A stretch of DNA of 64,000 nt. Origin: Candidatus Woesearchaeota archaeon. GTDB taxonomy: Archaea > Nanobdellota > Nanobdellia > Woesearchaeales > JABGUJ01. Location: contig JABGUJ010000001.1 in assembly GCA_018646625.1 (NCBI GenBank), positions 5,534 through 69,533 on the forward strand, in the 5' to 3' direction. The notes under the pieces are model-generated. The model ran no database searches. It was not told the DNA's origin and saw only the letters and a list, made by a program, of their open reading frames with translations. The position numbers were made by a program, and so were the translations under genes. Numbering within the stretch: position 1 is the stretch's first letter; each line of letters opens with the position of its first letter. Below are positions 6,205 through 56,733 of this stretch, in pieces.

Positions 6205-6256
6205 ACTTCTCAATTCTAAGAAAAGTTTAAATAAACCATAATTCATAGAGAAATAA

Positions 6257-7129
6257 ATGAAAAAATTAGTGATTGGTGGACAAGCAGTGATCGAAGGGGT
6301 GATGATGAAATCACCAAAATATCTTTCTATAGCCGTAAGAAAACCTAACAAAAAAATATCTGTCAAGACTGAAAGTTTTAAGTCCATTACAGATAAATAC
6401 AAATGGTTAGGGTGGCCACTCATAAGAGGCGTCGTTAATCTAATCGAGATGCTAGCAATAGGTATGCAAGCACTAACCTTCTCCGCAAACGAAGCATCAG
6501 GAGAAGAGGAGGAAGAACTCACAAAAACAGAGATCATAACTACATTCTTAGCAGCAATGTTATTCACAGTCGCATTCTTTATTATTCTACCATTTTATCT
6601 AAGTAAATTGGTAGTTACGTCAGGACAAGGAATACTATTCAATCTACTTGACGGATTGATCAGAGTAGGATTATTCTTAGTATACGTACTAGTAATCCCA
6701 TTCATGAAAGACATAAGAGCAGTCTTCCAATATCACGGCGCAGAACACAAATCAGTACATTGTTACGAGTCCGGCAAGAAACTTACAGTAAAAAATGCAC
6801 AGAAATTCTCCACACTACACCCAAGATGCGGAACTAGTTTCTTATTGATAGTGTTGGTGATTAGCATATTGATTTTTTCATTAATCACATCAGAAAGTAC
6901 AATCATAAAAATATTAGCAAGAGTAGTTCTACTACCAGTTATCGCAGGACTATCCTACGAACTATTAAGATTTAGTGCAAGACACGAGAAAACTATTTGC
7001 TGCAGAGCAATTATCTGGCCAGGATTAATGTTACAAAAACTAACAACACGAGAACCTACAGATAAACAAGTTGAAGTTGCAATCAAAGCATTAGAAGCGG
7101 TACTAAAAAAAGAGAAGGTGAGGAAATAA
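6257..7129 (+). CDS. DUF1385-family membrane protein (YqhQ-like)
   Basis: N-terminal GGQAVIEGVMMKSP and FQYHGAEHK motifs characteristic of DUF1385; several TM segments. Confidence 0.55.
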   Translation: MKKLVIGGQAVIEGVMMKSPKYLSIAVRKPNKKISVKTESFKSITDKYKWLGWPLIRGVVNLIEMLAIGMQALTFSANEASGEEEEELTKTEIITTFLAAMLFTVAFFIILPFYLSKLVVTSGQGILFNLLDGLIRVGLFLVYVLVIPFMKDIRAVFQYHGAEHKSVHCYESGKKLTVKNAQKFSTLHPRCGTSFLLIVLVISILIFSLITSESTIIKILARVVLLPVIAGLSYELLRFSARHEKTICCRAIIWPGLMLQKLTTREPTDKQVEVAIKALEAVLKKEKVRK

Positions 7130-20307: not shown

Positions 20308-21246
20308 ATGAGAAGGAAAGTTATACAGCAAAATCCCACCACATTAGTAGTCTCATTACCAGCAAAATGGGCAAAAGCAAACGAAGTAACAAAAGGCGAT
20401 GAGTTGGACATTTCGGAACAAGAAGATAAACTAATTGTAAGCATAGCAGATCAATCAAAAAGAAAAGAAAGGACCGTCACATTAAATTTTAATAAAAAAC
20501 ATTGGGAAATCCCAAATAAAAAATATAAATATGTTCAAAGAATTCTTGCAGCACCATACAAAGCAGGATATGATGAAATCATAATAAGATCCGATTGCAA
20601 AGAAGTTTTAGAATACATCGAAAAAAGAGTTGAAACGTTCATAGGAATAGAAATAATTGACCAAGGAAGAGATTATTTCAAAATAAAAAACCTGGTTTCA
20701 GGGTTAGATGAAGAGTTTGATAATGTCTTTAGAAGAACATTACTAATAACAAATCGATTTGCCACAGAATCATTGGAAATAATAAAATCAAAAGAATATG
20801 ATGATCTAAAAAATCTTCTAAGACTAGAAAAAACCCATAACAAGATAACTGATTTCTGTAAAAGACTATTGGCAGCAAAAGACTACGATTCACCAAAGAA
20901 AACAAGATACCTTTATGCACTCATTGCAGAGAATGAAAGACTTGTCGACGAGTATAAAGACATCTGCAAATACATATTGAATAGTAAAAATCCAGAAATC
21001 AGCAAGGAAATTGTTACACTTCTAGAAGATACAAACAAATTAGTAGTACAATACTCAAATTCATTCTTTAAATTTGATCTCGAAAGCATCCACACATTAA
21101 CAAAAGGCTTTTGTAAAGAAGAAGAAACTGCGCTGCAATTATTCGATAAACCATCAACAAAAGATAAGAGAATAGTACATCACATTTTAAACATATTAAC
21201 AAAGACATACGAAATGGGCGAAGCCTTTCTAGAAATGAATATCTAA
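20308..21246 (+). CDS. AbrB/SpoVT-domain plus PhoU-like domain protein (putative regulator)
   Basis: N-terminal swapped-hairpin motif TTLVVSLPAKWAKANEVTKGDELDI; C-terminal helical PhoU-like repeats. Confidence 0.5.
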   Translation: MRRKVIQQNPTTLVVSLPAKWAKANEVTKGDELDISEQEDKLIVSIADQSKRKERTVTLNFNKKHWEIPNKKYKYVQRILAAPYKAGYDEIIIRSDCKEVLEYIEKRVETFIGIEIIDQGRDYFKIKNLVSGLDEEFDNVFRRTLLITNRFATESLEIIKSKEYDDLKNLLRLEKTHNKITDFCKRLLAAKDYDSPKKTRYLYALIAENERLVDEYKDICKYILNSKNPEISKEIVTLLEDTNKLVVQYSNSFFKFDLESIHTLTKGFCKEEETALQLFDKPSTKDKRIVHHILNILTKTYEMGEAFLEMNI

Positions 21247-23896: not shown

Positions 23897-25033
23897 TTAA
23901 ACAAAAACAAATTTTTCTTTTTCTACCATTTTTATTGCAAGAGGCTTAGACACATCTCCAAATTCATCGAACGTAGTCAATCCTCCGACACCCCTATAGT
24001 CAGTAACACCATATAACTCATCTCTAATACAGATAGAGTCTTGGCCACAAACTTCTAGAGCTAAAGCAATAATCATAACAGCATCATAGCTATCTGCTGC
24101 AGTTCTCTCAGGCAAATCACCATAACGAGTAACAAAGTCATCAACAAAATCACCAATGATCATATCATCACTCTCAGGATCGAATGCAGGTGCAGTGTAA
24201 AGTATACCATCAGCCGCTTCACCAGCCACATCAAGTAAATCTTGACTTTCAATAATCACAGGCGCTAAGATTTGTGATTCAATACCCAATTCTTTTGCTT
24301 GTTTAACAGCCAACTCAAGTGACAAACCAGCAAAATAAACAACATCCGAATCGGATGACTTAATCTTAATCAACTGTGTTCTAAAATCATTAACAGATTT
24401 ATCATAAGACTCCTGCACAATAACCTCACCACCCAGTTCCCTAAATCTTGTAACAAACGCATCATTGTAATCTACACCATTAGCTAAATTCAAAAACAAC
24501 GTCGACGCAGTCCTCGCACCCAACACATCATAAGCATACTCAGCCATATACTTTCCATGTACATCTCCACTTATACTGTTCCTGAAAACAAAATCTCCTG
24601 CATCACGAATTCTAGGAGCAGATGCAACCGTAGAAAAAACAACAGTTTGCGAGATCTCAGCAACTGGAGCTACAGCCATAACGTTTGATGAACTTGTAGG
24701 ACCAATAACAACAGAAACTTTGTCATTATCAATTAATTTTCTAAGTGCCAACAAAGCCCTAGTCTTATCAAACATACTATCCTCATACACAACTTCTAAT
24801 CTTTTACCGCTAATGCCGCCTTTAGAATTAATTTCTTCAACAGCTAAATCAACACCTTTTCTAACATTCTCTGCATGCCATGCCGCCTTCCCAGTAAAAG
24901 GTTGAACCGCACCGATCTTGATAACATCATCTTCAACAACTTGAGCAGTAATTTGACTTGAACCGCAACCACCCAAAATAATGATCATAAATAAAGCTAA
25001 AGCTATCTTAAATTTCATTTGTAGTACCTCCAA
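23897..25033 (-). CDS. LivJ-like (Peripla_BP_6) solute-binding lipoprotein, orphan (cassette 1)
   Basis: Lipobox ILGGCGSS; N-terminal IKIGAVQPFTGKAAWHAENVRKGVDLAVEEINSKGGISGKRLEVVYEDS typical of the Leu/Ile/Val-binding family. Confidence 0.75.
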   Translation of the reverse strand: MEVLQMKFKIALALFMIIILGGCGSSQITAQVVEDDVIKIGAVQPFTGKAAWHAENVRKGVDLAVEEINSKGGISGKRLEVVYEDSMFDKTRALLALRKLIDNDKVSVVIGPTSSSNVMAVAPVAEISQTVVFSTVASAPRIRDAGDFVFRNSISGDVHGKYMAEYAYDVLGARTASTLFLNLANGVDYNDAFVTRFRELGGEVIVQESYDKSVNDFRTQLIKIKSSDSDVVYFAGLSLELAVKQAKELGIESQILAPVIIESQDLLDVAGEAADGILYTAPAFDPESDDMIIGDFVDDFVTRYGDLPERTAADSYDAVMIIALALEVCGQDSICIRDELYGVTDYRGVGGLTTFDEFGDVSKPLAIKMVEKEKFVFV

Positions 25034-25139: not shown

Positions 25140-25838
25140 ATGAAAGAAGCGCTAAGAGAGTATGGGCTTTCAGACAACGAAGCAAACGTATATCTAGCAG
25201 TTCTAAAGTTAGGAGAATCACCCGTAACAGATATAGCCAACAAAGCCAACACTTACAGAACCTTAACGTACGAAGTCCTAAAATCATTAGAAGACAAAGG
25301 TTTAGTCAGCTCAGTAATAAGAGATAAGAAAAAACATTTTATTGTAGCAAGCCCTGAAAAATTATTACAAGGATTAAAAGAAAAAGAAAGAAGAATTCAA
25401 GAAATCATGCCAGACCTATTATCAATTCACAAATCTGTTTCTATTAAACCGACAATGACCGTATATTCAGGTACAGAAGGAATCAAAAATATTTTCCAAG
25501 ACATTCTTAACGTTGGAGAGGATTTCATAGCCATTGCATCAGTTGAACAAGTCAGATCAAAAATTGATTTTATGTTTAAACACTTCATATTAAAAAGAGT
25601 TGAACTGAAAATGAAGGCTAAACTAATTATTGACAAAGAACCACTAACAAAAGAACTCACAGAGTACAAAGTAATGGATTTTAGTGTACCAACCCTTCTA
25701 TATGTATACGCAAATAAAGTTGCAGTAATAAATGTTGGAACTGAATTAGTAGGAATGATAATTGAAAGTGAGGATTACGCTAAAACACAAAAAATGATGT
25801 TTGATTGGATGTGGAACACAGCTAAGAGTAAGCCATAG
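25140..25838 (+). CDS. TrmB-family HTH transcriptional regulator, short form (cassette 1)
   Basis: N-terminal LREYGLSDNEANVYLAVLKLGESPVTDIANKANTYRTLTYEVLKSLEDKGLVSS matches the TrmB HTH. Confidence 0.7.
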   Translation: MKEALREYGLSDNEANVYLAVLKLGESPVTDIANKANTYRTLTYEVLKSLEDKGLVSSVIRDKKKHFIVASPEKLLQGLKEKERRIQEIMPDLLSIHKSVSIKPTMTVYSGTEGIKNIFQDILNVGEDFIAIASVEQVRSKIDFMFKHFILKRVELKMKAKLIIDKEPLTKELTEYKVMDFSVPTLLYVYANKVAVINVGTELVGMIIESEDYAKTQKMMFDWMWNTAKSKP

Positions 25839-26952
25839 GAATACTATTTCTAATAACTTTAGGAGCTAAAACTTTACCAAAACCGCCAGTAACAGAATCA
25901 TAGTCTAAAACACCAGACGCACCTTGATAATTTCTCAACATTGCAACATACGCGCCTAAACAATCACTATTGAACTTAGAATTTTCACATTTGACTAATG
26001 CATTCTTCAATATCATCAATGCATCATAGCTATCTCTATTAACAATACCACTACTACGATTATAACGAGACATAAACTCAGACTCAAACCCTTTATCAAC
26101 AATACCAGAATAAACATACAATACCCCTTCATCAGCACCAGCCGCACCTTGAATCTCGTACGGTTCCTCGACAGCCATATCAGACAACAAAGTTAAATTC
26201 AAACCCAACTCCCTCATCTGATTAAATATTAATCCGCCCCTACCATAAAGAACAAGTATTGCATCAGCACCAGATTCAGAAATCTTAGCTAACCGAGTTC
26301 TAAAATCAGAATCCGAATAATCATAACTTTCAACAACTGTCAACTCACCACCTAAATTCCTCAACGTACTACCAAAAGCCCCAATATAAGCTTGCGCCCA
26401 ATCATTGTCAATGTGAATCACACCCACTTTTCGAACACCAGACTCAAAAGCAACTTTAGCCAATTCTTCACCTTCGCGACCTATCAAAAATCTCGTACTA
26501 AAATAATATTTAGTCAACTTACCAAAATTATCCCCAGGAGTAATTAGAAAAACTTTTTTCTCATCCACCAAATTTGCCGCAGCTTTAACAGAAGAACCAC
26601 AAAATGGACCCAACAAAGCAACAACATCATCCATCTCAACTAATTTATGAACGGCATTAACAGTATTCTGAGGTCTACAACCATCATCTTCGTAAACCAA
26701 CTCAATTAATCTACCATTAACACCACCTAAAGAATTAATTTCTTCGAGAGCCATTTCAAATCCGTCCCGCATACGTTCACCATAAAACGCAATCGGACCT
26801 GCAAAAGGACCTACCACTCCAACCTTAATCGGCTCTAGCTCCACACTCTCCTCTACAACATTATTAGAACAACCTACAACAAACAAAAGCAACAAAATCA
26901 TAAAAAATGCTAGTCTCATAGTATATTCATTAACAGAAGCATATTTAAACAT
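25822..26952 (-). CDS. LivJ-like solute-binding lipoprotein, orphan (extra copy)
   Basis: Lipobox VVGCSNN; IKVGVVGPFAGPIAFYGERMRDGFEMALEEINSLGGVNGRLIELVYEDD. Confidence 0.75.
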   Translation of the reverse strand: MFKYASVNEYTMRLAFFMILLLLFVVGCSNNVVEESVELEPIKVGVVGPFAGPIAFYGERMRDGFEMALEEINSLGGVNGRLIELVYEDDGCRPQNTVNAVHKLVEMDDVVALLGPFCGSSVKAAANLVDEKKVFLITPGDNFGKLTKYYFSTRFLIGREGEELAKVAFESGVRKVGVIHIDNDWAQAYIGAFGSTLRNLGGELTVVESYDYSDSDFRTRLAKISESGADAILVLYGRGGLIFNQMRELGLNLTLLSDMAVEEPYEIQGAAGADEGVLYVYSGIVDKGFESEFMSRYNRSSGIVNRDSYDALMILKNALVKCENSKFNSDCLGAYVAMLRNYQGASGVLDYDSVTGGFGKVLAPKVIRNSIPMAYS

Positions 26953-26971: not shown

Positions 26972-27622
26972 ATGACACTTATTGTAGGTATTGACGAAGC
27001 AGGACGTGGACCAGTCATCGGACCATTAGTTATTGCAGGGGTAATGATCAATGAAAAAGACGAACCAAAACTAATCAAATTAGGCGTAAAAGATTCTAAA
27101 CAACTTACGGAAAAAAGAAGAAATGAGTTATTTCAAGAGATTAAAGACTTAGGCGTAGAATATGAAATTCTAATCATACATCCAGAAGAAATTGATGAAA
27201 CTCTAAGAAGTCCATCATCTAACTTAAACTGGTTAGAAGCAGACAAATCTGTAGAAATAATAAAAAAATTAAAACCTGATGGCGTCATATTAGATTGTCC
27301 ATCAACCGTTCCAGAAAAATACAAACAATATGTTGAACAAAAACTCAAAGACAAAACGAACGTGATTGCAGAACATAAAGCAGACGATACATATCCGGTA
27401 GTCAGTGCAGCTTCTATCTTAGCAAAAGTAACAAGAGACGCAGAGATTGAAGCAATAAAAAAGAAATACGGAGACTGCGGATCAGGCTATCCTTCAGATC
27501 CTAAAACTCAAGATTTTCTTAAGAAAAATTTTAAGAAATTTCCTGAAATATTCAGACAAACTTGGGAAAGTTACAAAAATATAATAAGAAAAAAAGAACA
27601 AAAAGGTTTAGGAGATTTTTAA
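26972..27622 (+). CDS. rnhB: Ribonuclease HII
   Basis: IVGIDEAGRGPVIGPLVIAGV catalytic motif and C-terminal SAASILAK motif. Confidence 0.88.
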   Translation: MTLIVGIDEAGRGPVIGPLVIAGVMINEKDEPKLIKLGVKDSKQLTEKRRNELFQEIKDLGVEYEILIIHPEEIDETLRSPSSNLNWLEADKSVEIIKKLKPDGVILDCPSTVPEKYKQYVEQKLKDKTNVIAEHKADDTYPVVSAASILAKVTRDAEIEAIKKKYGDCGSGYPSDPKTQDFLKKNFKKFPEIFRQTWESYKNIIRKKEQKGLGDF

Positions 27623-28755
27623 GCATCTACAAACTCGCCATCCCTAAACACTTTCAAGATAAAATCGCTTTCATCTCTTATAACATCTCCATTGTGATCA
27701 AATCTAAGACGACCAGAAGAACCTTCATGATCTACCCCGTATAATCCGTTTTTTATACAGACCGGATCTTCACCACACTGCTCTAACAACCCGGCATAGA
27801 TATATACAATATCATAAGCCAAGTAAGGATGAATTGTTGGTTCCTTCCCAGCAATCTCAATATATTTCTCTCGAAAACGTTTAGTCTTAGGATTATCGCT
27901 CTCCATATCAAACTCATAAAAGGAATATATTCCTTCAGCAGCCTCTCCCGCAATCTGATAAACTTCAGGACCCCACGAAGACGGATTAATCATAAATGGA
28001 ACATCAATACCCAACTCTCTTGCTTGTTTAACTATCAGACCCCCTTCTTCTGAATGAGACACAAAAAACATAACATCAGGATCACCCGACTTTATTTTCA
28101 AAAGATAAGTTCTAAAATCATGATCTCCGGTCTCAAACTTTTCATAAGCAATAATCTCGCCGCCCAACTCTTCAAACTTCTTCACAAAAGCATCTCCTAA
28201 CCCAACACCATAATCAGAGTTCTTCACAATAACTGCAGCTTTCTTAGCATTAAGAACTGAAACCGACTTTTCAGCAATCTTAAAAGCTTCAACATCGCCA
28301 GCAACCTTGGCCCTAAAAGTAAAATCGCCAGCATATCTCAAGTGAGGAACCGCAGAACCCGGAGTAAATATAGGAATTTGTGATTGCTCAGCAAATGGCG
28401 CAATGTACAAACTATTAACAGTCACATCACTTATCACTGCACTAACACCTCTTGCGGCTAGACTTTGAAATGCTTTTATCGCTTCCTTAGGTTGAGCCAT
28501 ACTATCTTCCATAATAATCTCTAAACGTTTACCATTTATTCCACCATTAGAATTAATTTCATCTTGCGCAATCTGCACGCCTCTCCACACCCTAACACCA
28601 TAAGAATCAGAATTCGCCCCACTCATTGGCATGACCGCCCCAATAGTATAAACTTCTTCTTGCTTAACTACTTCACCAGTAACCCCACATCCAACTATAA
28701 ACATCAAAGCTAACGCTACTAACAATAATCTTAATTTCATTTTTACCTCCAACAA
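27619..28755 (-). CDS. LivJ-like solute-binding lipoprotein, orphan (cassette 2)
   Basis: Lipobox IVGCGVTG; YTIGAVMPMSGANSDSYGVRVWRGVQIAQDEINSNGGINGKRLEIIMEDS. Confidence 0.75.
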   Translation of the reverse strand: MLEVKMKLRLLLVALALMFIVGCGVTGEVVKQEEVYTIGAVMPMSGANSDSYGVRVWRGVQIAQDEINSNGGINGKRLEIIMEDSMAQPKEAIKAFQSLAARGVSAVISDVTVNSLYIAPFAEQSQIPIFTPGSAVPHLRYAGDFTFRAKVAGDVEAFKIAEKSVSVLNAKKAAVIVKNSDYGVGLGDAFVKKFEELGGEIIAYEKFETGDHDFRTYLLKIKSGDPDVMFFVSHSEEGGLIVKQARELGIDVPFMINPSSWGPEVYQIAGEAAEGIYSFYEFDMESDNPKTKRFREKYIEIAGKEPTIHPYLAYDIVYIYAGLLEQCGEDPVCIKNGLYGVDHEGSSGRLRFDHNGDVIRDESDFILKVFRDGEFVDA

Positions 28756-31034: not shown

Positions 31035-32198
31035 TCACTCAACCAAAACAAATTCACCATTTCTAACAGTTTTCATTTGTATTGGCCGATAAAGGCCCCA
31101 AATTCCATTCTCAAACTCCAAGTCTCCGCCAGCTCCAGAATATGATTCCATAGACGACAAGTACTCCACTAAACAGTCAGCATCACCATCACAAACTTCA
31201 AAACCTTCAAATAATAACATCAAAACATCATATCCAACAGCACCATAGTACTTATCAACTAATGCCTCACCATAATGCAATTCATACTCAGCTATAAACT
31301 CAGCACTCACAACATCTTCAGGATCAAAGTCATACATAATAGCAGTAACACCATCAGCTGCGTCACCCGCTAAAGCAACAACACTATCATAAGACACCAA
31401 CTCTTGGCCATATACAGGCAACTCAACTTCAAGCTCCTTAATTTGCTTCAACATCATTGCCGCACCAGGAATACCAATTGGTAAAATCAACATCGCTTCT
31501 GGCTCTGCATCTTTAACCTTTAGGATTTGAGTTCTCATATCTGAAGAACCAAAGTCATAAGTCTCAGCAATAATAACATCCCCACCAAGTTTCTCAAACT
31601 CTTCTGTGAAAACTTCATAATAACCAATGGGATAATCATTGTTTTCATAGATTACACCAACAGTTTTTATTTCATGAGAGCTAATCAACTTTGCAGCTTC
31701 AGTTGCAGCCAACCGTGAAGATGCAGATATTCTAAAAACATAGTCACCCGCATATGTTATCTTTGGTGATGCAGCTACAGGAGTAATATGAATTATTTTG
31801 TTTGCTTCCGCAATCGGAGCAACAGCCAATGCAACACTGCTACAAATTCCTGTAACAATTACATCAACTTTATCCACATTAACAAACTTATTTGCAATAA
31901 TTGCAGCCTCACTTGGATTACACCTGCTATCCTCAACTACAATCTCAATCTTCTTACCACCCATATTGATCTGATCTAAAGCCAACAAAAGGGATTTTTC
32001 AACAGGATAACCAACACTAGCCAACGGCCCGGTCTGAGGAACCATGAATCCAACCTTAACTACATCTTTCTCAACTTTTACAACTTCACCAGTAACTGTA
32101 CCACAACCAGTAAATACGCTAAACACTAACAATAAAGCTACCGCTAAAACAATCAGTTTATTCATTTTAAGCCTCCAGATGACCTCTTTAGAAGCCAA
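31035..32198 (-). CDS. LivJ-like solute-binding lipoprotein, orphan (cassette 3)
   Basis: Lipobox FTGCGTVTG; VKVGFMVPQTGPLASVGYPVEKSLLLALDQIN...KIEIVVEDS. Confidence 0.75.
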   Translation of the reverse strand: MASKEVIWRLKMNKLIVLAVALLLVFSVFTGCGTVTGEVVKVEKDVVKVGFMVPQTGPLASVGYPVEKSLLLALDQINMGGKKIEIVVEDSRCNPSEAAIIANKFVNVDKVDVIVTGICSSVALAVAPIAEANKIIHITPVAASPKITYAGDYVFRISASSRLAATEAAKLISSHEIKTVGVIYENNDYPIGYYEVFTEEFEKLGGDVIIAETYDFGSSDMRTQILKVKDAEPEAMLILPIGIPGAAMMLKQIKELEVELPVYGQELVSYDSVVALAGDAADGVTAIMYDFDPEDVVSAEFIAEYELHYGEALVDKYYGAVGYDVLMLLFEGFEVCDGDADCLVEYLSSMESYSGAGGDLEFENGIWGLYRPIQMKTVRNGEFVLVE

Positions 32199-39354: not shown

Positions 39355-39981
39355 ATGACTAAAGCAACAACAATTTGCGTTCTAGTAGATGATGAAGAAA
39401 AATTAGTAGCTGAAGGTAGACAAGCTCTTGAAACTGCAGGCCACAAAGTTTTAGATTTAGACATTACTCAAGTAATGGCGCCAAGCGCATGGCAAACAAC
39501 ACTTGAACAAGCAGGTGGTAAAAGAGTTTATGTAGTACTTGATAAGAATTTTGAGTACAAAGCAGATGCAATAAAACCATACGCAGAAGGAGCTGACGCA
39601 GTACAACTAGCCGGGCAAGAACCTTCTGATGTTCCTGAAGACATTTCCGGCGGAGGCGCATTAGATTCAATTATTGCTGCCGCAGCAATGTACGGAGGAG
39701 AAATCGTTGTACAGGTCTTGACTTCCGAAAGAGATATGGGAACAGACTATGCAACTAGAGCAGATCACGGAGTTGAAATTTGGACAGGTCACAAAAGAGA
39801 TGTAGCTTATGGTGACAGAGTAACTCAAATAATAGATGCACATGCAGCAAAAGATGCAGCAGTTGCAAGAGATGCACCTGAACAAGTCATAGCAAAACAT
39901 TTTGACGACTTAAAAGAAGAGCACGGGGTCGAAAGACTTTATCTACAACAAAGAACAAGAAAAAGACCTGGAGCGGAATAG
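39355..39981 (+). CDS. Hypothetical Ala-rich protein with receiver-domain-like N-terminus
   Basis: TICVLVDDEEKLVAEGRQALETAGHKV resembles the start of a CheY-like REC domain; composition (Ala/Asp-rich, Lys-poor) is atypical for this window. Confidence 0.3.
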   Translation: MTKATTICVLVDDEEKLVAEGRQALETAGHKVLDLDITQVMAPSAWQTTLEQAGGKRVYVVLDKNFEYKADAIKPYAEGADAVQLAGQEPSDVPEDISGGGALDSIIAAAAMYGGEIVVQVLTSERDMGTDYATRADHGVEIWTGHKRDVAYGDRVTQIIDAHAAKDAAVARDAPEQVIAKHFDDLKEEHGVERLYLQQRTRKRPGAE

Positions 39982-39993
39982 GTCTATTCTTTT

Positions 39994-42282
39994 TTATTTT
40001 CTTTTTGCTTCTCTTTCTAAATCAGCATAATATGCTTGAGGTCCACCAATCTCAGAAACCTTATAGAATAAATCGTCATTTAAACCTGGAAGATAAACTT
40101 CTACTCTCGCGCCTTTAGTTGGTCCATTAGTAATATATCGAATTAAACCGCCCAATCCCCCTGTAATCATCTCGTGACTCGCAATTGCTCCAATACTATG
40201 ACCATCTTTTTTAGAAGAAGGTACCTCTAAACCGTCTGTCAATTTTACAGCTAGCTTAGCATCAAGATCTCCTGATTGAGTTATAATGGTCTTAACCAAA
40301 TCAGATTTTCCACTTAGAGTGTACGGATTTTCTTCAGCAGTAATAAATACTTTACCCCGCACAGATGCCTCAGCGGCGTTATCAACTAAATTTAACATCG
40401 CCGCCATCAATACATCTCGCTCAACATTAACATAGATATGTTCAGGTACTTGATTAATTATTTGTGCATGTCCTCGTGGAGATAAGTGTGCAACAATCTC
40501 ATCAATAAATCCTTTATAGTCAATAATAACAAACTTACCTTTGCGTTCTGTACCCGCCATAAGATCTTCAAGAAGATCTCTAAGTTTCACAGCTTGTTGA
40601 CAATTGAAAGCATCCTTCTTAATATTAGACGGAACTTCATTCGTTGGCGCACTAACCAAATAATCAAGACCATCATACAAAAAGCCATCATCATTATATC
40701 GGTCACCCGCAATCAAGACCAAATCTCCCAAATAAGAAGACAAAGAATCTCTTAAACATCTAAACGCATTAATCGTCAAAGGATTTGCTAAGTTTTTCCC
40801 ATCATGCGCTTTCTTCTTAACTCGCTTTCTTTCAACGAAAGCAGCTTCTTGAGTAGCAGTTAATCTCTCAACTTCCGCATCAGCCTCTGCAGCTCTTCGA
40901 GCAGCCTCGGCCTCACTAACTCGAGCACCCATAGTCTCCAACTGAGACTCAACCCTCTCAGTAACCAATCTAGATCTTTCAACAAGAGACTGACCCATTC
41001 GCGCCGAGTACGCTTGATTAGCTTCATCAATCTTTCCTGCAAGTACAACACGCGCCGCCTTTCGAGAAAAAGCTCTCCAAAATCTATTTGTTGGCTTATA
41101 GTAATAATGATCAAAACAAGCAGGACAATTATAAAAAACCCCTCTGCGAAAGATTCTCTTACCATGCAATTTTAAATCTTCATCCAGTTCACAGAGTAAA
41201 CCAACCTGCAATCCAGGCATCCCAATCAATCTTGGATCTAATTGTTGAGAATAGTTAGATAACACCCCAAAATTTCGAGAAGTCGATCCCCCTGCCACTT
41301 GCGGTGCAAGTGCATGTTCTAAGGTTTCAAGATCATACCCCCAACCCCGATCAACAGGGCGTTGCGGATCAAGCAATCTAACATACCTTCCAAAATATTT
41401 ACCATCTAAGAAAACAGACGTACCGTCTCTGCGCAGTTCATAACCAGTACCAAAATAAGTATTTAATCGATCAACAGTATCTTCTACACGAGATTGAGAA
41501 TGAGTTGCAACATGCTTAAATGGTTTAGCCCTCCACCCGAAAATAGGAATAGAAGAAACTAAAGGAGAAACAGACATCATACCTTGAGTAAACCATTCGT
41601 CCCAAAGACTATTTCTAACAGAATATTCACCCATCTGAACAGATGCTCCGGGTTCAGGACCGCCAAGATCAACATGTCTCATATCAAGAACTGTATTAAA
41701 TCTTTCACTCAAAACATGAGTCAGTGCAACAATGTTTTCAGGAATAGAAAAAGCAGTAGATTGATCAACATCTCTTACATGACGATGCGTCTCAGTAGTT
41801 ACAGACAAAGTAATTGAAGGATCGGGAGGATCAAGCAATGCAGCCCATTGCAACAGATTATGCATAAAAACATCTTCCATAACTTCATAAGGAATTCCTT
41901 TGAACGGAGAAGAAAACAAACGAATTAATCTTTCATCACTACACTCTAAAACATCATCCTTTTCTGCAGCCAAAGCATATATTTGAAACAATCTATTTTC
42001 TCTCAATCCATCCCAAAAAAAACTCACAGAAGAATACCAATCAACAAAAGAAAAATCACTTAACACCCGCCCCCCTTCCATTTTTTTAAGGTTAGGTCTT
42101 TTTTCGTACTTACCAACAACTTTGGCCCTCATAACATCCAGATCTATAAGTAAACTTCTACCAGAAATTGTTTTAGAAAGTTTATGCTTAATTGCCTTAC
42201 GATCTTCACCCTCTCTCAGAACCCTATCTAGAACATCATCTAGAGAGCTTGCGCTCGCTCCTCCTACTGCACTATGAACCAT
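39994..42282 (-). CDS. Large cytoplasmic protein with C-terminal GHKL/histidine-kinase-like ATPase domain (762 aa)
   Basis: C-terminal N-box-like MLNLVDNAAEAS, G-box-like GGLGGLI and ...EVYLPG ending; Arg-rich coiled-coil EAEAARRAAEADAEVERL; no TM segments; N-terminal 500 aa unrecognised. Confidence 0.45.
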   Translation of the reverse strand: MVHSAVGGASASSLDDVLDRVLREGEDRKAIKHKLSKTISGRSLLIDLDVMRAKVVGKYEKRPNLKKMEGGRVLSDFSFVDWYSSVSFFWDGLRENRLFQIYALAAEKDDVLECSDERLIRLFSSPFKGIPYEVMEDVFMHNLLQWAALLDPPDPSITLSVTTETHRHVRDVDQSTAFSIPENIVALTHVLSERFNTVLDMRHVDLGGPEPGASVQMGEYSVRNSLWDEWFTQGMMSVSPLVSSIPIFGWRAKPFKHVATHSQSRVEDTVDRLNTYFGTGYELRRDGTSVFLDGKYFGRYVRLLDPQRPVDRGWGYDLETLEHALAPQVAGGSTSRNFGVLSNYSQQLDPRLIGMPGLQVGLLCELDEDLKLHGKRIFRRGVFYNCPACFDHYYYKPTNRFWRAFSRKAARVVLAGKIDEANQAYSARMGQSLVERSRLVTERVESQLETMGARVSEAEAARRAAEADAEVERLTATQEAAFVERKRVKKKAHDGKNLANPLTINAFRCLRDSLSSYLGDLVLIAGDRYNDDGFLYDGLDYLVSAPTNEVPSNIKKDAFNCQQAVKLRDLLEDLMAGTERKGKFVIIDYKGFIDEIVAHLSPRGHAQIINQVPEHIYVNVERDVLMAAMLNLVDNAAEASVRGKVFITAEENPYTLSGKSDLVKTIITQSGDLDAKLAVKLTDGLEVPSSKKDGHSIGAIASHEMITGGLGGLIRYITNGPTKGARVEVYLPGLNDDLFYKVSEIGGPQAYYADLEREAKRK

Positions 42283-42392: not shown

Positions 42393-43490
42393 ATGATTGA
42401 AATAAAAGAAGTAACTCGAGAAAACATAGCAGAATTTCTCAAACTTCCTGTAAAAATATACAAAAACGATCCAGAATGGGTACATCCAATAGATGAAGAT
42501 GAAGAATTATTCTTCTCAGACTCCAACCCTTGCTGGGACAATGTAAAGAAAAAACTTTTTATCGCAATAAAGAATAAAGAAACAGTTGGAAGAATCGCAG
42601 CATTCATTGATCCGTTCTATCAAAAGATTGAGAAAGTTGGTTACTTCGGCTGTTTCGAATCAATTAATGATAAAGAAGTTGCTAAGGCACTACTAAATGC
42701 AGCAGAACAATACATCAAACAAAACAAAATCAAAGAAATATGGGGACCAATCGATGGAAACATTGGACACAAATGTGGCCTACTACTAGAACACGAACCA
42801 CAAATCATTGCACCACTAATGAACTACCATCCTAAATACTATAAAGATTTAATGAAATCATGCAAATTAAAAAAACTAGTAGATACATTATCTTACAAAA
42901 TAGATATTTCTCAAGTAAAAGATAAAGATTTAGTAATTAACCAACCCACACACATCCACTTCAGACCAATAAGAAACGACAAAGTAGTAGATGACTGTCA
43001 CATTGGAACAAAAATAATAAACGCAGCGTTCAAACCAACAAAACACACATTATTCAGACCACACAAGATAGAAGAAGCAGAATTCCAATGGAAAGATGTT
43101 CCTATGCTCAATAACCCTCACTTAGCATTCTTCATCTACGACGAGAAAAAGAAAAAAGACTGTGGACTGGTCCTTAGCTTTCCAAACGTAAACATAATTG
43201 TTAAACACTTCAAAGGCAAGCTAAACTTCATCAACAAAATAAAATTCATTTTTAATAGAAATAAAATAGGAGAAGTAAAGTCCGACATCATGGCAGTTTT
43301 ACCAGAATACAAAGGTAAAGGACTGGGAAAACTTATGATGGTAAAGCTTCTAAGAAACATGAAAGAACAAGGTTTCCAAACATTAGAGTACTCATGGGTA
43401 TTAGAAACAAACAAAATATCCCGAAAAATTGCAGAACACTATGGCGGAAAAATAGATAAGAAATATAGAATATATCAGAAAAAGATCTAG
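42393..43490 (+). CDS. Putative GNAT-fold N-acyltransferase (365 aa)
   Basis: C-terminal acetyl-CoA-binding-like segment MAVLPEYKGKGLGKLMM. Confidence 0.35.
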   Translation: MIEIKEVTRENIAEFLKLPVKIYKNDPEWVHPIDEDEELFFSDSNPCWDNVKKKLFIAIKNKETVGRIAAFIDPFYQKIEKVGYFGCFESINDKEVAKALLNAAEQYIKQNKIKEIWGPIDGNIGHKCGLLLEHEPQIIAPLMNYHPKYYKDLMKSCKLKKLVDTLSYKIDISQVKDKDLVINQPTHIHFRPIRNDKVVDDCHIGTKIINAAFKPTKHTLFRPHKIEEAEFQWKDVPMLNNPHLAFFIYDEKKKKDCGLVLSFPNVNIIVKHFKGKLNFINKIKFIFNRNKIGEVKSDIMAVLPEYKGKGLGKLMMVKLLRNMKEQGFQTLEYSWVLETNKISRKIAEHYGGKIDKKYRIYQKKI

Positions 43491-44167
43491 ATAATCTTAG
43501 CCAAAACACTTTCTCCTGCTCTAACTTTATCCCCTTCTTTAACTAAAACTTTAACTTTATTAGCAGGCAGTACAACATCAACCTGAGAACCCATCTTAAT
43601 CATTCCAAACCTTTGTCCTTTCTTCACTTTACTACCTTTTTTCACCCAACAAACAACTTTGTTCACAGCTAAATCTGCAATTTGCACAACATAAACAGGA
43701 AACTTCCCTTTAATCAACACAACATTCCGTTCATTCACCCACATATGATGAGAATATTTGTAAAAAGGCCGTATATTTAGTAAAGTTCTAAACCACATTA
43801 TCGTCATTGCCAAATTGTTATGATTATAATGCTTGACATGATCAACCTTGCCTGCAATTGGCGCCCTATTAACGTGAACAGAAAAAGGACTCATAAACAC
43901 ACCAATCAAATACTTATCGCCATAAGATTTTTCTTTAATATCATCCTTAAGACTAATTTTTCTACCCCTCTTAACGGAAATCGGAACAACACCCTTCTTA
44001 ATCCTCTTAACATAAACGATTTCACCATCCGCAGGACTAACAACATTATTACCAGAAGGAACAACTCTATCAGGATCTCTAAAGAACCAAATAAATCTCC
44101 AATAAACCCACGCCATACACAAAACGCACAAAACCACTAATATCGCAAAACCACACACATTCATCAC
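43487..44167 (-). CDS. psd: Phosphatidylserine (archaetidylserine) decarboxylase proenzyme
   Basis: N-terminal TM anchor; FGMIKMGSQVDV self-cleavage-site-like G-S motif near the C-terminus; HVNRAPIAGKV region. Confidence 0.7.
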   Translation of the reverse strand: MMNVCGFAILVVLCVLCMAWVYWRFIWFFRDPDRVVPSGNNVVSPADGEIVYVKRIKKGVVPISVKRGRKISLKDDIKEKSYGDKYLIGVFMSPFSVHVNRAPIAGKVDHVKHYNHNNLAMTIMWFRTLLNIRPFYKYSHHMWVNERNVVLIKGKFPVYVVQIADLAVNKVVCWVKKGSKVKKGQRFGMIKMGSQVDVVLPANKVKVLVKEGDKVRAGESVLAKII

Positions 44168-45766
44168 TCACACATATTTTACCTTTATCCCATGTTTATG
44201 AGGATACTTTTCAAACTCATACAAATTAATAATCAAAGGGCTTTTGCCAGTTTTCTTCTGCAATATTGAAAAATTAAGTGGAAAGTCAGTACTTAATTTA
44301 GTAAAATAACGCATAACAGCAGCATGTGCTTTTTTCTCTAACGCTTTACTTTTACGCTGCTTTTTCTTCAATTGCACATCAATCTGCAAGAAAGGATTAT
44401 AGTTCTTATCATAAACTTCTTGTAATCTAAACACACCCGAAAACTGTTTCAAAAATTGTTTATTAGAAAAAATAACATCATGAATATATTCAGGATAAAT
44501 CAATTGACCTATAAAATTCACAGTACCATCAGATCTACCTACAACAAAAACAAAAGGAGTTGGAAGTTCAAGTTTCAAAGAAACACCGTGCTCTTTTAAG
44601 ATCTTATTAACTTTATCATTAGTTAACAATCCGCCAACGTCATGTATATTATACCTAATCAAAGGCATCATCGCCTTCAGATCACAGTTAGTAAATATCA
44701 ATTCATCTTTCTTATTAGTTTCAATGAAATACTTAGTAGGATCATACTGAAACAAAGTCGGCAAAACAGAAGCATACGTTCCATAAATTGCTTTTCGCAA
44801 CTTTTTATCATTCATACACAAATAACGAATATAAGCAGAATCTTTTGTTTCATTAACACCAGTTATTCCCAAATCTGATGCACCAAACGCAGAAAAAATA
44901 AATCCCTTACGATCATCTCGCATAGATGTGCCTAAAATAGTAGACATGTGCTGCCTCCATCCTTCAGTAAAAGGTTCAGCACCAAGAAGCAAGTTAATTT
45001 TATATCGCTTAAAATTAATCTTTTTCCGTACGCCTTCTTCAAATAAATTCTTAGTAAAATGAGGAGTACCAGCAAAGATAAATTGATCATATTCATCTTT
45101 CATATCTTTGAAAATATCAAGACTTTCCTCCATGTCCGCACCAGGAGCAATAACTGAACACTTAGAATCAGCAATCATCAACAAATCCACACCACTAACC
45201 CAAGATCCCAATGCAAAAGTGTCAACTAACAAGGTTTTTTCTTTAGTAATATTAAATAACAAATCCAGTCCTAGAGCCGCAAAGTTCTTTGACTCCTTTT
45301 GCTCTTCTCTAGATTTCGCCCAAGTACTTGCCTTGCCACTATACCCGGAACTTCTAGCCAATAAACTACATTTAGAAACATCCATCCCAACACAAAGATC
45401 ACTTAAACCTTTAGAAGTTTTAACATAATCATTCTTTGTCATCATAGGAACATACTTCACAAAGTCATCAAAATCCGCAACATCAGATATTATCACATTC
45501 CTAGAAGATAAAAAGTTTTCATAATGAGAAATATTCAAAGCTGCACGCTTAAACGCTGCCACCACTTTGCGCTTCGCCATAATATCAAGATCTTTAGGTG
45601 AAGAATTCAGAATCAAAGATCTTAAGAAATCAATATTATGAGCATTTCTACGCATAAAACTATCCAGCACAGCAGCTGGAAGATACCTCACCACTTTTGA
45701 CAACATAATACTATACTCCAAAAGAAGGTATTTAAAGGTTTTTAACCAAAGGACAGAGAAATTCAA
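44168..45766 (-). CDS. Putative adenylate-forming enzyme (PaaK/F390-synthetase/GH3-like)
   Basis: SSGYSGKAS resembles the SSGTTGKP P-loop of phenylacetate-CoA-ligase-like enzymes; 532 aa. Confidence 0.35.
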   Translation of the reverse strand: MNFSVLWLKTFKYLLLEYSIMLSKVVRYLPAAVLDSFMRRNAHNIDFLRSLILNSSPKDLDIMAKRKVVAAFKRAALNISHYENFLSSRNVIISDVADFDDFVKYVPMMTKNDYVKTSKGLSDLCVGMDVSKCSLLARSSGYSGKASTWAKSREEQKESKNFAALGLDLLFNITKEKTLLVDTFALGSWVSGVDLLMIADSKCSVIAPGADMEESLDIFKDMKDEYDQFIFAGTPHFTKNLFEEGVRKKINFKRYKINLLLGAEPFTEGWRQHMSTILGTSMRDDRKGFIFSAFGASDLGITGVNETKDSAYIRYLCMNDKKLRKAIYGTYASVLPTLFQYDPTKYFIETNKKDELIFTNCDLKAMMPLIRYNIHDVGGLLTNDKVNKILKEHGVSLKLELPTPFVFVVGRSDGTVNFIGQLIYPEYIHDVIFSNKQFLKQFSGVFRLQEVYDKNYNPFLQIDVQLKKKQRKSKALEKKAHAAVMRYFTKLSTDFPLNFSILQKKTGKSPLIINLYEFEKYPHKHGIKVKYV

Positions 45767-46595
45767 GAATCACTGCCTCTAATTCATCAGCATCTTCAAC
45801 AACAACCATGTGATGATTATCTCTAAGAACCCTTAGTTCAGCAGATTTGTGTAACGTTTGAATCTCCTTAGTAAATCTGGGAGGAATAACCGGATCTTGA
45901 TCTCCAGCAAGAAGCAAGAGAGGCATTTCCAAAGATCTTATTGCGCCATCTATTTTAGATTGATTCTTAAAAACATACTTCTCAACATTATCTAAAGTTT
46001 TTACAATACTTCTCAAAGGAGTTAAATGTACAAGATGAGATAAAAGATGTAGATCTTCCCTCATACCTGATGCAGACAAATCAACATCACCAAATCCTCT
46101 CAAATGATTATGATGAGAAAGCTTATGCTTCGAAATATATCTCAAAAGATGAGTAAGATATGGTTTCAAATTTAACAAACGTTCATGATCAAAAGGATAT
46201 GTTCGTGCACTCTCGACCAACACCATAGCAGAAGGACGCAAAGACTTGTACAACATACAATAATTAATTGCCACCGCGCCACCCAGACTATGACCCAGGA
46301 ATGCAAAATTTTCAATCTTCTCTTTTTTCAAAATTGCCCTTATATCTTTAGAAAAATTAGGCAATCTATACTTGGACATTGCATCAGGAGCATCGGATTT
46401 ACCATGACCCCTCATATCAATAGCCAACAAAGAAAAACCTACTCGCTTAAAATAATCAAACTCTTTTTTCCATATAGTCCAGTTAGCACCAACACCATGA
46501 AGAAAAACTAAAGTGAATGGAGATTTGCCTTTATGATAATGATAATAGATTCTCGTACCATCAAAAGACTTCATTCTTCGCATAGAAATAACCAA
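45732..46595 (-). CDS. Alpha/beta-fold hydrolase
   Basis: Nucleophile elbow GHSLGG, HG oxyanion motif (FLHGVGAN), C-terminal His. Confidence 0.7.
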   Translation of the reverse strand: MVISMRRMKSFDGTRIYYHYHKGKSPFTLVFLHGVGANWTIWKKEFDYFKRVGFSLLAIDMRGHGKSDAPDAMSKYRLPNFSKDIRAILKKEKIENFAFLGHSLGGAVAINYCMLYKSLRPSAMVLVESARTYPFDHERLLNLKPYLTHLLRYISKHKLSHHNHLRGFGDVDLSASGMREDLHLLSHLVHLTPLRSIVKTLDNVEKYVFKNQSKIDGAIRSLEMPLLLLAGDQDPVIPPRFTKEIQTLHKSAELRVLRDNHHMVVVEDADELEAVILEFLCPLVKNL

Positions 46596-53735: not shown

Positions 53736-54860
53736 CTATTCAACAACCACAAAACCGTTCTCCGTTATTTGTTTAACAAAAACTTCTCTTTCTGCCACTT
53801 GTTCTTCTGTAAATGAGAACACACCACTCGCCCCGTTATAATCAAACACATTTCGACTTTCTGAAACCATACAATCAACACTGTCACAATTACTACCAAT
53901 TCCGGCCATTAACATAATTGCATCATAAGCAAACGCGGCGTTCATCTCAGGCTCTTCGCCGTATTTCACCTCATACCTGACCGCAAAATCACTTTCATCG
54001 ACCCTAAACGGATAAGTATATGTAACCCCATATGCGCTTTTACCAACAGTATTAACTAACAATTTTGTTTGCGATAACCAAGGACCAATAAATTTAACAT
54101 CCACATCATATTCGCCAGCCTGTTTTAACAGATTTGCAAAATGAGGAGGATTAAATGAAGTAAAGATTGCCTCAGTTCTATGTTCTTTTGCTTTCAACAA
54201 AGCCGTTCTCAAATCAGCAGATTCAAATTTATCAACAGATTCAATAATTGTTATTTCACCACCATTTTGTTCAAAAGCACGTTGAAAATGTTCTCTATAA
54301 CTTTGTCCGAAAAAATCATGTTGATGAAAAATCGCAACCTTAGTTACGCCATTATCAATAACGTGCTCCGCAAGTTTATCCATTTCATTCGATATAGCAG
54401 GAGGCATGTTAAACAAATGCGGGTGTTTGCCAATCAAAGGATCGGTTCTTACCGAAATACTATAAGTTAAAGCTTTTCCTTCAGTTATAGGTGCAACAGC
54501 AGGAGTTACTGCGCCACAATATACAATAATCTTGTCCAAACCATCAACATCCAAAAGCTTACTAACTGTTTTAGTACCTTCAGTTGGACTGCACTTATCA
54601 TCTTCAACAATAAGTCGTACCAGCCTATTATTAATTCCACCTGCTCGATTTATATCATCTACAGCCATCTGCGCCCCTTGTAAAGCCCACTCACCATACA
54701 GAGCAACAGGACCCGTTAAAGGTAAACTGAACCCAATCTCAATATCCTCATAAACGCTCTTACCAGTTATGGAACTAGACCCACAACCCATGATTAATAC
54801 TACCACTATCAATATCATAGCCAATTTCACTCTAACCACCAAGTCAAAAGAAAGCAACAA
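53736..54860 (-). CDS. LivJ-like solute-binding lipoprotein, orphan (cassette 4)
   Basis: Lipobox IMGCGSSS; IEIGFSLPLTGPVALYGEWALQGAQMAVDDINRAGGINNRLVRLIVEDD. Confidence 0.75.
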   Translation of the reverse strand: MLLSFDLVVRVKLAMILIVVVLIMGCGSSSITGKSVYEDIEIGFSLPLTGPVALYGEWALQGAQMAVDDINRAGGINNRLVRLIVEDDKCSPTEGTKTVSKLLDVDGLDKIIVYCGAVTPAVAPITEGKALTYSISVRTDPLIGKHPHLFNMPPAISNEMDKLAEHVIDNGVTKVAIFHQHDFFGQSYREHFQRAFEQNGGEITIIESVDKFESADLRTALLKAKEHRTEAIFTSFNPPHFANLLKQAGEYDVDVKFIGPWLSQTKLLVNTVGKSAYGVTYTYPFRVDESDFAVRYEVKYGEEPEMNAAFAYDAIMLMAGIGSNCDSVDCMVSESRNVFDYNGASGVFSFTEEQVAEREVFVKQITENGFVVVE

Positions 54861-55704: not shown

Positions 55705-56733
55705 TCACAAATCTCTATAACGAGCAGCAACATCATCAAAACCAAGAAGACCAGCAATATTTCCACAAACAATTTTTGCAGCACGACGATAAACGCAAGG
55801 ATCATATTCATCAGTTGAAATATCCTCCGAACAATCCTCAAAACGCTTCAAGTCAGATTCAAAAATTGGTTTTAAGTCATCAAAATAAGAGTAACCGTTA
55901 TTTCTACCCAACATCCTAACTAATTCTAGCTGCGAGTACATAACTATTAGACTCCCAGGTTCATCAGCAGTTTGTAGCATTTCTAAAGCACCGTCATAAA
56001 GCGATCTTTCCAACTCAGCAACATCCATACCCAAATCTTTTGCAGAATCATTAGAAAAATAATATAATGATTTTACAGGCACATTAACTCCTCTCAGAAT
56101 ATTATCCATAGGAAACAAAAACATCGCCAAGTTTGAAACAGTATTATCATCATTGCCTAAAATAGAATATACTTTATCAACAAGTCCACGTTCATATGCA
56201 CTCGCATCAACACCTAACTCTTCTGCTTTTAATCTCGCATCTTCAACAAGAGATTGAAAAAAAGAAAAATTCCATTGACTATTAGTACAATCAAACAAAT
56301 CCAAATTAGTACTTGCTTTAGCATAACACTGAGCAACAGGATTATCTCCATCACAGTCAAATCTCCCTGCAAGTGCTTCAGCAACCTTCTTCTCAAATGC
56401 GGCTACATTAATACTAGCACAGGTTTCATTATAAGCTGCAAGATCTTTCTCATATTGAACAATCTCATCAGGAGAAGCATCTTCACTCGGAAGTATAGGT
56501 TCCATAGGCCAACCGTTTTTACCTTCGGCACGCAAACAATCGGACAAATCACTTCTTGCAGAAACCAAATGTCCTAAATGAGCACCATCTTGAGGAAAGG
56601 AAGCAGAACTAGCTGCATGAAATGCACGATCATAAGCATCAAGAACATCAGATTTATCTGGAGACCTCAAAGTCAAAGCCAAAACTGCAGCAGTTATAAG
56701 CGCTCCAATACCTAAATATCTACCTAAAGTCAT
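55705..56733 (-). CDS. Secreted Cys-containing protein of unknown function, Ala/Asp-rich
   Basis: Signal peptide LGIGALITAAVLALTL; composition atypical for this window. Confidence 0.4.
   Translation of the reverse strand: MTLGRYLGIGALITAAVLALTLRSPDKSDVLDAYDRAFHAASSASFPQDGAHLGHLVSARSDLSDCLRAEGKNGWPMEPILPSEDASPDEIVQYEKDLAAYNETCASINVAAFEKKVAEALAGRFDCDGDNPVAQCYAKASTNLDLFDCTNSQWNFSFFQSLVEDARLKAEELGVDASAYERGLVDKVYSILGNDDNTVSNLAMFLFPMDNILRGVNVPVKSLYYFSNDSAKDLGMDVAELERSLYDGALEMLQTADEPGSLIVMYSQLELVRMLGRNNGYSYFDDLKPIFESDLKRFEDCSEDISTDEYDPCVYRRAAKIVCGNIAGLLGFDDVAARYRDL

Follow-up and report, generated by a model that had tools for sequence, protein, structure and literature searches.

A convergent gene pair in a Woesearchaeota genome

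We analysed a 64,000-nucleotide (nt) stretch of a Candidatus Woesearchaeota metagenome-assembled genome (MAG) with 35% GC (assembly GCA_018646625.1, contig JABGUJ010000001.1, positions 5,534 to 69,533; hereafter, the window) and examined two convergent genes within it. The open reading frame (ORF) list places a gene for a 208-amino-acid (aa) stand-alone receiver-like protein at 39355..39981 on the + strand and a gene for a 762-aa soluble sensor histidine-kinase-like protein at 39994..42282 on the − strand. A 12-nt spacer, GTCTATTCTTTT (39982..39993), lies between their stop codons. These coordinates, strands, lengths and gap are exactly those of a first-pass annotation made from the letters alone, and each peptide it had quoted was found: NLVDNAAEAS (residues 631-640), GGLGGLI (708-714), VEVYLPG (727-733) and CPAC (386-389) in the large protein, and ICVLVDDEE at residues 7-15 of the small one. 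We detected no hydrophobic segment of transmembrane (TM) grade in either protein, and the highest Kyte-Doolittle mean over 19 residues in the large protein is 1.06, in agreement with the annotation, which had described it as free of TM segments. The same two proteins are also encoded on contig JABHCO010000020.1 of GCA_018673515.1 and on at least 20 near-identical metagenome contigs.

The only Pfam match to the 762-aa protein was HATPase_c at residues 624-732, scoring a sub-threshold 18.3 bits against a cut-off of 26.4, and NCBIfam returned only kinase matches, far below threshold. For the 208-aa protein, Pfam had no match at all. Seven of ten relatives tested reached the HATPase_c cut-off. A phmmer search of PDB with the 762-aa protein alone gave no match. 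NCBI names the product 'HAMP domain-containing histidine kinase [Candidatus Woesearchaeota archaeon]', yet neither Pfam nor NCBIfam matched a HAMP domain in it at E <= 1; because neither a HAMP domain nor a TM segment is detectable, NCBI/PGAP seems to have assigned this name generically. Automated annotation thus already labels the kinase; the receiver is listed as 'hypothetical', and the features of the family are unannotated.

When each protein was the query in word-index searches of 5.8 billion proteins, nothing but the query itself came back. Exhaustive phmmer searching of 1.84 billion cluster representatives recovered 29 proteins at E <= 1e-3: four (P0003-P0006, at 28-34% identity) have the N-terminal ~400 residues in common with the query, and ~25 match it over the C-terminal ~300 residues only. 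All taxon-named members come from Woesearchaeota, 'Nanoarchaeota archaeon' or 'archaeon' MAGs, making this a small family whose named members have so far been found only in DPANN archaea. When the family alignment served as the word-index query, it retrieved canonical bacterial kinases exclusively and no family members; these kinases were the source of the reference HisKA and receiver (REC) domains used below. In the set of papers searched, we found no description of this family.

A transmitter module with atypical H-box and G1 motifs

By sequence comparison, the C-terminal half of the 762-aa protein qualifies as a genuine kinase transmitter module in which two motifs, the H-box and the G1 box, are atypical. 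A family profile matched 63 PDB sequences at E <= 0.01, and the 60 matches listed are histidine-kinase transmitter or catalytic and ATP-binding (CA) domains, including those of CheA and hybrid kinases. The top match was ThkA (3a0r, E 1.9e-23); others were KinB (3.1e-20), HK853 (4e-11), ZraS, FixL and CheA. MutL, GyrB, Hsp90 and MORC proteins were absent from the PDB matches listed for this profile. We also aligned the family (26 sequences) with 72 canonical modules comprising a dimerization and histidine phosphotransfer (DHp) domain and a CA domain. This reference was drawn from the bacterial kinases found with the family alignment, and HK853 and EnvZ sequences were used only as its seeds. The hhalign comparison scored 99.8% (E 8.4e-28) across 207 columns. 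Both comparisons support the first-pass proposal that the C-terminal domain is a histidine-kinase-type ATPase.

hhalign and column conservation delimit a DHp-like region at residues 490-580 (40543..40815, − strand). The family alignment to the reference begins at the H-box, where the window's KKKAHDGKNLANPL stands opposite ANISHELRTPL of HK853. The H-box itself, AHDGKN (residues 492-497; 40792-40809, −), aligns to the canonical H-box and has the family consensus A-H-D-x-K-N. Its histidine, His493 (40804-40806, −), is the predicted phospho-acceptor: it falls on the phospho-accepting His of HK853 and is kept in all 26 family sequences. The first-pass annotation had seen no recognisable H-box; a divergent one is present.

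The predicted Bergerat-fold CA domain follows at residues 581-735 (40078..40542, −), as placed by Pfam and by the family profile against PDB. Its N-box, NLVDNAAEAS (40363-40392, −), conforms to a family pattern NLxxNAxEAS in which Asn635 (40378-40380) is invariant (26/26) and N631 nearly so (24/26). In the G2 motif GHSIG (residues 694-698; 40189-40203, −), which aligns to GTGLG of HK853, both glycines (G694 and G698) are present in 26/26 sequences, as is a Lys or Arg at position 691. Every catalytic residue of the kinase/receiver pair is conserved except the G1 Asp.

The G1 box is the real anomaly of this kinase, reading QSG instead of DxGxG. Within the variant motif ITQSG (40270-40284, −), Gln669 (40276-40278) aligns by hhalign to the G1 Asp; Gln occupies this position in 25 of 26 family sequences, the first glycine (G671) is kept in 24, and the second is missing. 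The one exception is P0020, with Asp at this position and a canonical DNGTG/GTGLG core. In the alignment of the family profile with PDB sequences, NSG of ThkA stands opposite the family's QSG. The G1 Asp of canonical kinases pairs with the adenine amine (10.1101/2022.12.12.520123). VanS-A, VanS-C and ThkA have Asn instead and no second glycine, ThkA retains an Asn-adenine hydrogen bond, and another Asp-to-Asn kinase has a GTP preference (10.1101/2022.12.12.520123). An amide at G1 thus has precedent and is compatible with nucleotide binding, because ThkA and the VanS kinases carry Asn and ThkA still contacts adenine. We found no described case of Gln fixed at G1 across a lineage.

The same substitution raises the alternative that loss of the G1 Asp abolished ATP binding and left a degenerate, non-catalytic scaffold or a phosphatase-only pair. 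The kinase-like protein would then be a pseudokinase that binds or only dephosphorylates its receiver-like partner, or that is coupled to it conformationally without phosphotransfer. The contrast with the reference kinases, all 72 of which have the G1-equivalent Asp, is in keeping with this, as are the absent second glycine and the weak HATPase_c scores across the family. Pseudokinases, however, usually lose several catalytic residues, whereas strong purifying selection is evident here: His493, Asn635, the G2 glycines and K/R691 are all universal in the family, and the receiver retains its full Asp/Asp/Asp/Thr/Lys set. Moreover, the Asn that ThkA has in this position supports nucleotide binding (10.1101/2022.12.12.520123). 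We regard the scaffold alternative as unlikely.

A probable diverged receiver partner

The 208-aa protein is predicted to be a diverged stand-alone receiver without a recognisable output domain. Its receiver core occupies residues ~1-150 (+ strand). An alignment of the small-protein family contains five invariant residues (D13, G29, D63, G79 and K147, in window numbering) together with a conserved Thr123 in a V-x-T-S/G strand. We compared the family by hhalign with 68 receiver domains, 65 of them taken from hybrid kinases in the database and the rest being CheY, Spo0F and PhoB seeds; it scored 96.1% (E 2.9e-9), and three unrelated alignments used as negative controls scored <= 0.2%. In this alignment, Asp12/Asp13 (39388-39393, +), the predicted phospho-acceptor Asp63 (39541-39543, +) and Thr123 (39721-39723, +) are in register with CheY D12/D13, D57 and T87; Lys147 (39793-39795, +) came to stand opposite CheY K109 under a relaxed alignment threshold. 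When the small-family profile was compared with PDB, 27 of 37 sub-threshold matches were receiver domains.

The protein has an insert of ~35 residues between beta3 and beta4 and a C-terminal tail (151-208) that is not conserved and ends in a basic stretch. A single-sequence AlphaFold2 (AF2) model had a predicted local distance difference test (pLDDT) score of 46.9, with beta strands and helices alternating as expected for a (beta-alpha)5 fold. Foldseek searches with this low-confidence model gave generic alpha/beta matches with TM scores of ~0.3, none at E <= 0.001.

Searched as a single sequence, the 208-aa protein best matched the inosine-monophosphate dehydrogenase (IMPDH)/GMP-reductase structure 2qr6 (E 0.004) and NCBIfam GuaB3 (E 0.0066), over ~75-90 residues. 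These matches favour a different reading, in which the small protein binds phosphate, is a fragment-like (beta-alpha) relative of TIM-barrel segments of IMPDH, GuaB3 or FabK, and lies beside the kinase by coincidental synteny. We judged the IMPDH/GuaB3 similarity to be marginal: it covers one beta-alpha-beta segment and is absent for the relatives. A TIM barrel would also need more than the <=208 aa available, the small-family profile scored 96% against receivers and placed the catalytic residues in register, and the invariant residues are precisely those of a receiver set. The TIM-barrel reading is accordingly very unlikely in our estimation.

Conservation of the pairing

Gene context was looked up for family members of every subfamily, and ten loci with downstream DNA entered the pairing tally: the window, L007, L010, L011, L012, L013, L014, L016, L017 and L018. 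Genome and metagenome pattern scans yielded only three extra loci; exact-protein look-ups yielded far more. A receiver-like gene directly follows the kinase gene on the opposite strand in seven (the window, L007, L010, L011, L012, L013 and L017), and the small gene of L018 encodes a borderline receiver (36.6%, E 3.7e-4). The pair therefore recurs as a unit in 7, possibly 8, of 10 loci, and the objection named in the first-pass annotation, that the two genes might be conserved together nowhere else, does not apply.

The small proteins, which have no Pfam match, are chained by BLASTP (L007-L011, 2e-8; L010-L013, 8e-9; L011-L012, 2e-4; L007-window, 5e-4, or 8e-5 in a two-sequence comparison), and the L017 protein matches the small-family hidden Markov model at E 5.4e-11. 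Spacing between the kinase and small genes ranges from a 10-nt overlap (L017) up to 149 nt. The genes are convergent in L007, L010-L013 and L017 as in the window, a conserved orientation that is unusual for two-component genes.

Two loci have other contents at this site. In L016, a 'Nanoarchaeota archaeon' locus, a gene at 5996-6466 (−) encodes a 154-156-aa protein that looks by eye like a PIN-domain (VapC-like) protein (VLLDTGPL...), and ~850 nt beyond it hold no convincing ORF. The 193-aa protein encoded next to the kinase in L014 has the motifs YAEDEN, LLLDKDM, VMLTG and LTKG and a coiled-coil tail.

A lineage-specific N-terminal domain

Residues 1-406 of the kinase (41065..42282, −) form a lineage-specific N-terminal domain of ~400 residues that we regard as a putative sensor. 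It is common to the query and P0003-P0006, with conserved motifs THSQSR (260-265), LCE-D (363-369) and R--R-G-FY....DH-YY (376-395). No match to it was found in Pfam, NCBIfam or PDB, with a best PDB E of 1.3, searches with a domain profile included; the first-pass remark that this region resembles nothing known thus stands. That annotation had also called the region Arg/Trp/Tyr-rich, which is true of Arg (8.1% versus 4.0 +/- 1.5% in other ORFs) and Trp (1.9% versus 0.8 +/- 0.7%) and not of Tyr (3.7% versus 3.6%). The CPAC pair was ruled out as a metal site, as it is not conserved: relatives have CEEC, SEAC, APAT or APQV.

hhalign detected a distant relation of this domain to the N-terminal region in one further subfamily (68.8%, E 4.5e-5). 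The N-terminal regions of subfamilies B and C have no detectable relation to the domain of the query. One transmitter type thus appears to be joined to at least three types of input region, as expected for sensor kinases. P0006, an ortholog in the equivalent syntenic position, joins this N-terminal domain to a canonical core (AAHELHQPV, DKGPGV and GTGLGL; HATPase_c 45.9 bits), in what looks like a natural swap of transmitter modules on one input domain. The existence of this canonical-core ortholog argues that the N-terminal domain is the input module of a histidine kinase; its sensor role we infer from position. Orthologs of the P0006 type lie at L009 2155-4722, L014 295-2841 and L015 2208-4754.

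Residues ~407-489 (40816..41064, −), read from sequence as an Ala/Glu/Arg-rich helical linker, would lead from this domain into the H-box helix. An Ala/Glu-rich stretch likewise precedes the H-box in relatives. The AF2 model of the 762-aa protein, unusable at a pLDDT of 34.3, has helices at 407-450 and 457-494.

Composition, inheritance and the defence alternative

The first-pass annotation had taken both proteins to be Arg/Ala-rich and Lys-poor, unlike nearly every other protein of the window, and had suggested horizontal acquisition as a unit. The 208-aa protein is indeed an outlier in Ala (14.4%, z 4.3), and the 762-aa protein in Arg (7.3%, z 2.3). The Lys contents, at 5.4-5.8% (z ~ -1.2), are not exceptional, since 14 of the 54 other ORFs have <=6% Lys. 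GC at third codon positions is 0.206 and 0.245 in the two genes versus 0.274 +/- 0.032 in the other 54 window ORFs, and their synonymous-codon log-likelihood z-scores are +0.19 and -0.08. Their elevated overall GC (0.42 and 0.39) lies in codon positions 1 and 2 and therefore reflects amino-acid composition, not codon choice. Synteny at this locus extends to other Woesearchaeota at ~30% protein identity, which indicates vertical inheritance within the lineage. Given this synteny and the host-like codon usage, recent horizontal transfer of the pair is not supported.

GHKL ATPases occur in defence systems, and the first-pass annotation had raised defence as an alternative role. On that account, the pair would be an anti-phage or conflict module built on a MORC-like or other defence GHKL ATPase, the small protein serving as effector or regulator. 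Beyond the general precedent, it could draw on the orphan status of both proteins with respect to standard models and on the PIN-like gene beside the kinase in L016. The evidence points elsewhere, however. No PADLOC defence model matched either protein, and PHROGs gave only a marginal 'kinase' match (E 0.0036). All listed PDB matches of the family profile are two-component kinases, and the protein has a DHp region with a conserved His. We found no mobile-element or island signature at this syntenic, vertically inherited locus, whose codon usage is host-like and whose neighbours belong to housekeeping or lipid/acyl metabolism. We consider a defence role extremely improbable.

Neighbouring genes

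The 532-aa product of the gene at 44168..45766 (−) is a divergent PaaK-like adenylate-forming enzyme of the phenylacetate-CoA-ligase family. The profile of its family matched PaaK (PDB 4r1l) at E 3.8e-15; NCBIfam PaaK models gave 2.5e-11, far under the cut-off, and Pfam gave no match. A PaaK-like protein of ~500-532 aa flanks the kinase gene in 10/10 loci (the window, L007, L009-L013 and L016-L018), the most rigid linkage of the neighbourhood and tighter than the kinase-receiver pairing itself.

An alpha/beta-hydrolase gene (Abhydrolase_1, Pfam 1e-25; 45732..46595, −) sits beside the PaaK-like gene at seven of the ten loci for which DNA was available (the window, L011, L012, L013, L016, L017 and L018), and the two are also paired at one further locus known without DNA. 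Between ligase and kinase lie a phosphatidylserine decarboxylase gene (43487..44167, −; Pfam 2.6e-48) in 4/10 loci (the window, L007, L009 and L011) plus L015, and a GNAT acetyltransferase gene (42393..43490, +; Pfam 5e-12) in 3/10 (the window, L007 and L011). The GNAT gene is divergent from the kinase gene, with which it has a 110-nt upstream region in common. Both genes were seen only within the query's own subfamily. From these adjacencies, we infer a link of the kinase/receiver pair to acyl or lipid metabolism.

Just past the receiver gene, four related loci carry members of a family that we call F3, whose proteins (216-318 aa) have no Pfam match, a Lys-rich/hydrophobic N-terminal start and Gly-rich repeats. 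The genes lie at L007 10883-11533, L011 7957-8913, L012 7969-8823 and 1544-2416, and L013 7636-8526; no copy was found near the kinase-receiver pair in the window. Separately, L007 has a 271-aa ORF (3434-4249, −) that lies upstream of its PaaK-like gene and has a receiver-like start, KLIFLEDNYILRNGLKKGL. If this were truly a receiver, a second cryptic receiver would lie near that locus.

Other features of the window

A 718-aa ORF at 21243-23399 (−) resembles the kinase in being Lys-poor (4.6%) and Arg-rich (7.0%); it has no Pfam or NCBIfam match, and paralogy between the two was rejected by BLASTP (E 1.7). Likewise without a Pfam or NCBIfam match is a 342-aa ORF at 55705-56733 (−), with 11.1% Ala and 3.8% Lys, the minimum for the window. 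Five similar Lys-poor ORFs of 374-387 aa, all on the − strand (23897-25033, 25822-26952, 27619-28755, 31035-32198 and 53736-54860), are probably paralogous solute-binding proteins; the first four alternate with short + strand genes, and the one at 31035-32198 corresponds to an L001 product with Peripla_BP_5/6 and ANF_receptor matches. GC skew is strongly negative at − strand genes and near zero or positive where genes lie on the + strand (for example, 6-10 kb and 33-37 kb). It follows gene orientation, and the coding strands are thus purine (G) rich.

Discussion

We favour, with good confidence, the reading that the two genes encode a two-component system that is specific to a lineage of DPANN archaea (Woesearchaeota) and has diverged strongly. 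Very probably, the large protein is its soluble sensor histidine kinase and the small one the cognate stand-alone receiver. The kinase and receiver profile alignments support the first-pass description of a soluble histidine-kinase-like protein beside a receiver-like one. That annotation also called the module non-canonical, which fits its sequence motifs and gene orientation; the His-to-Asp phosphotransfer that we would expect of it is canonical chemistry.

In the mechanism that we propose, the N-terminal domain would sense a cytoplasmic signal and the helical linker would relay it to the DHp region. The conserved residues suggest that the CA domain, with its Gln-type G1 box, binds a nucleotide and phosphorylates His493. 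Given the conserved active site and the adjacency of the genes, the phosphoryl group would then move from His493 to Asp63 of the receiver. Since no output domain can be recognised in the receiver, we predict that it works through contacts with other proteins. The pair is probably linked in function to the ever-present PaaK-like ligase and to the alpha/beta-hydrolase, in which case the system may sense or control an acyl or lipid-related metabolite.

Several observations weigh against a two-component system. The query's HATPase_c score is under the Pfam cut-off, the HisKA-type Pfam models give no match to the 762-aa protein, and Pfam Response_reg misses every member of the small-protein family at E <= 1. 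With the G1 Asp missing family-wide, ATP-dependent autophosphorylation is not assured. The window's 208-aa protein on its own aligned to receivers at only 29.5%, so the receiver assignment depends on a profile of 6-7 sequences, and both AF2 models are single-sequence and unusable (pLDDT 34 and 47). At the level of gene order, a PIN-like gene occupies the receiver slot in L016, and in L014, a locus of the canonical-core ortholog, the next gene is co-directional and its 193-aa product has receiver-like motifs at a non-significant E of 0.012. Finally, the genes are convergent and not co-transcribed as in most two-component systems.

Among known systems, the family is closest to class I (HisKA-type) kinases, its nearest solved relatives being Thermotoga maritima ThkA (3a0r) and Geobacillus stearothermophilus KinB (3d36). 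Like HisKA-type kinases, it has a DHp phospho-acceptor His followed by a CA domain with an N-box (NxxxNA), a 'TTK' lid segment and the G2 glycines. It differs from them in its H-box (AHDxKN, not SHELRTPL), in its G1 motif QSG (Gln, not Asp or Asn), in a ~30-residue insertion in the DHp hairpin and in its poor visibility to Pfam, HisKA being undetected and HATPase_c at or under threshold. The 762-aa kinase further departs from this class in its ~400-aa input domain, which has no known relative and is not a PAS, GAF or HAMP domain. ThkA has further traits in common with the family: it is cytoplasmic, its residue at the G1 Asp position is an amide (Asn), and there is no second glycine in its G1 box. 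VanS-A, VanS-C, ThkA and BA2291 have, like the family, lost the G1 Asp and retained the rest of the CA site; they carry Asn, whereas the family carries a Gln that is fixed lineage-wide (25/26). BA2291 of Bacillus anthracis, with its Asp-to-Asn change at G1, is reported to be GTP-dependent (Scaramozzino et al. 2009, as cited in PMC5862856).

The small protein is likewise comparable to REC-only regulators of the CheY type, with a single core, an Asp-Asp/Asp/Thr/Lys set in register and a gene beside the kinase gene. Unlike them, it escapes Response_reg, has the ~35-residue beta3-beta4 insert and a variable C-terminal tail, and is encoded convergently. Cytoplasmic kinases and stand-alone REC proteins are a typical archaeal pattern (PMC5847659). 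REC-only proteins are the commonest type of archaeal response regulator and are proposed to act by protein-protein interaction (PMC5847659). Two-component systems were almost absent from DPANN in published censuses, which did not cover Woesearchaeota and counted one pair in one Micrarchaeota genome and none in Nanoarchaeota (PMC5847659).

A more specific version of our reading, to which we give a low probability, is that kinases with the Gln-type G1 box form a clade with altered nucleotide use (for example GTP, as reported for BA2291, or another donor) and that their input domain senses a product or intermediate of the PaaK-like enzyme and the hydrolase. If true, reduced-genome and probably host-dependent DPANN archaea would possess a dedicated acyl or lipid-status circuit that domain censuses have missed.

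As a diverged two-component system, the pair would leave known two-component chemistry unchanged and be ordinary in principle. The family offers a naturally occurring Gln, fixed at the adenine-reading position of G1, and a new candidate input domain, and the rigid linkage to a PaaK-like ligase points to a possible physiological input. The kinase-receiver pair is conserved across Woesearchaeota-type MAGs, and both partners largely evade Pfam; domain-count surveys would therefore under-report signalling in reduced genomes.

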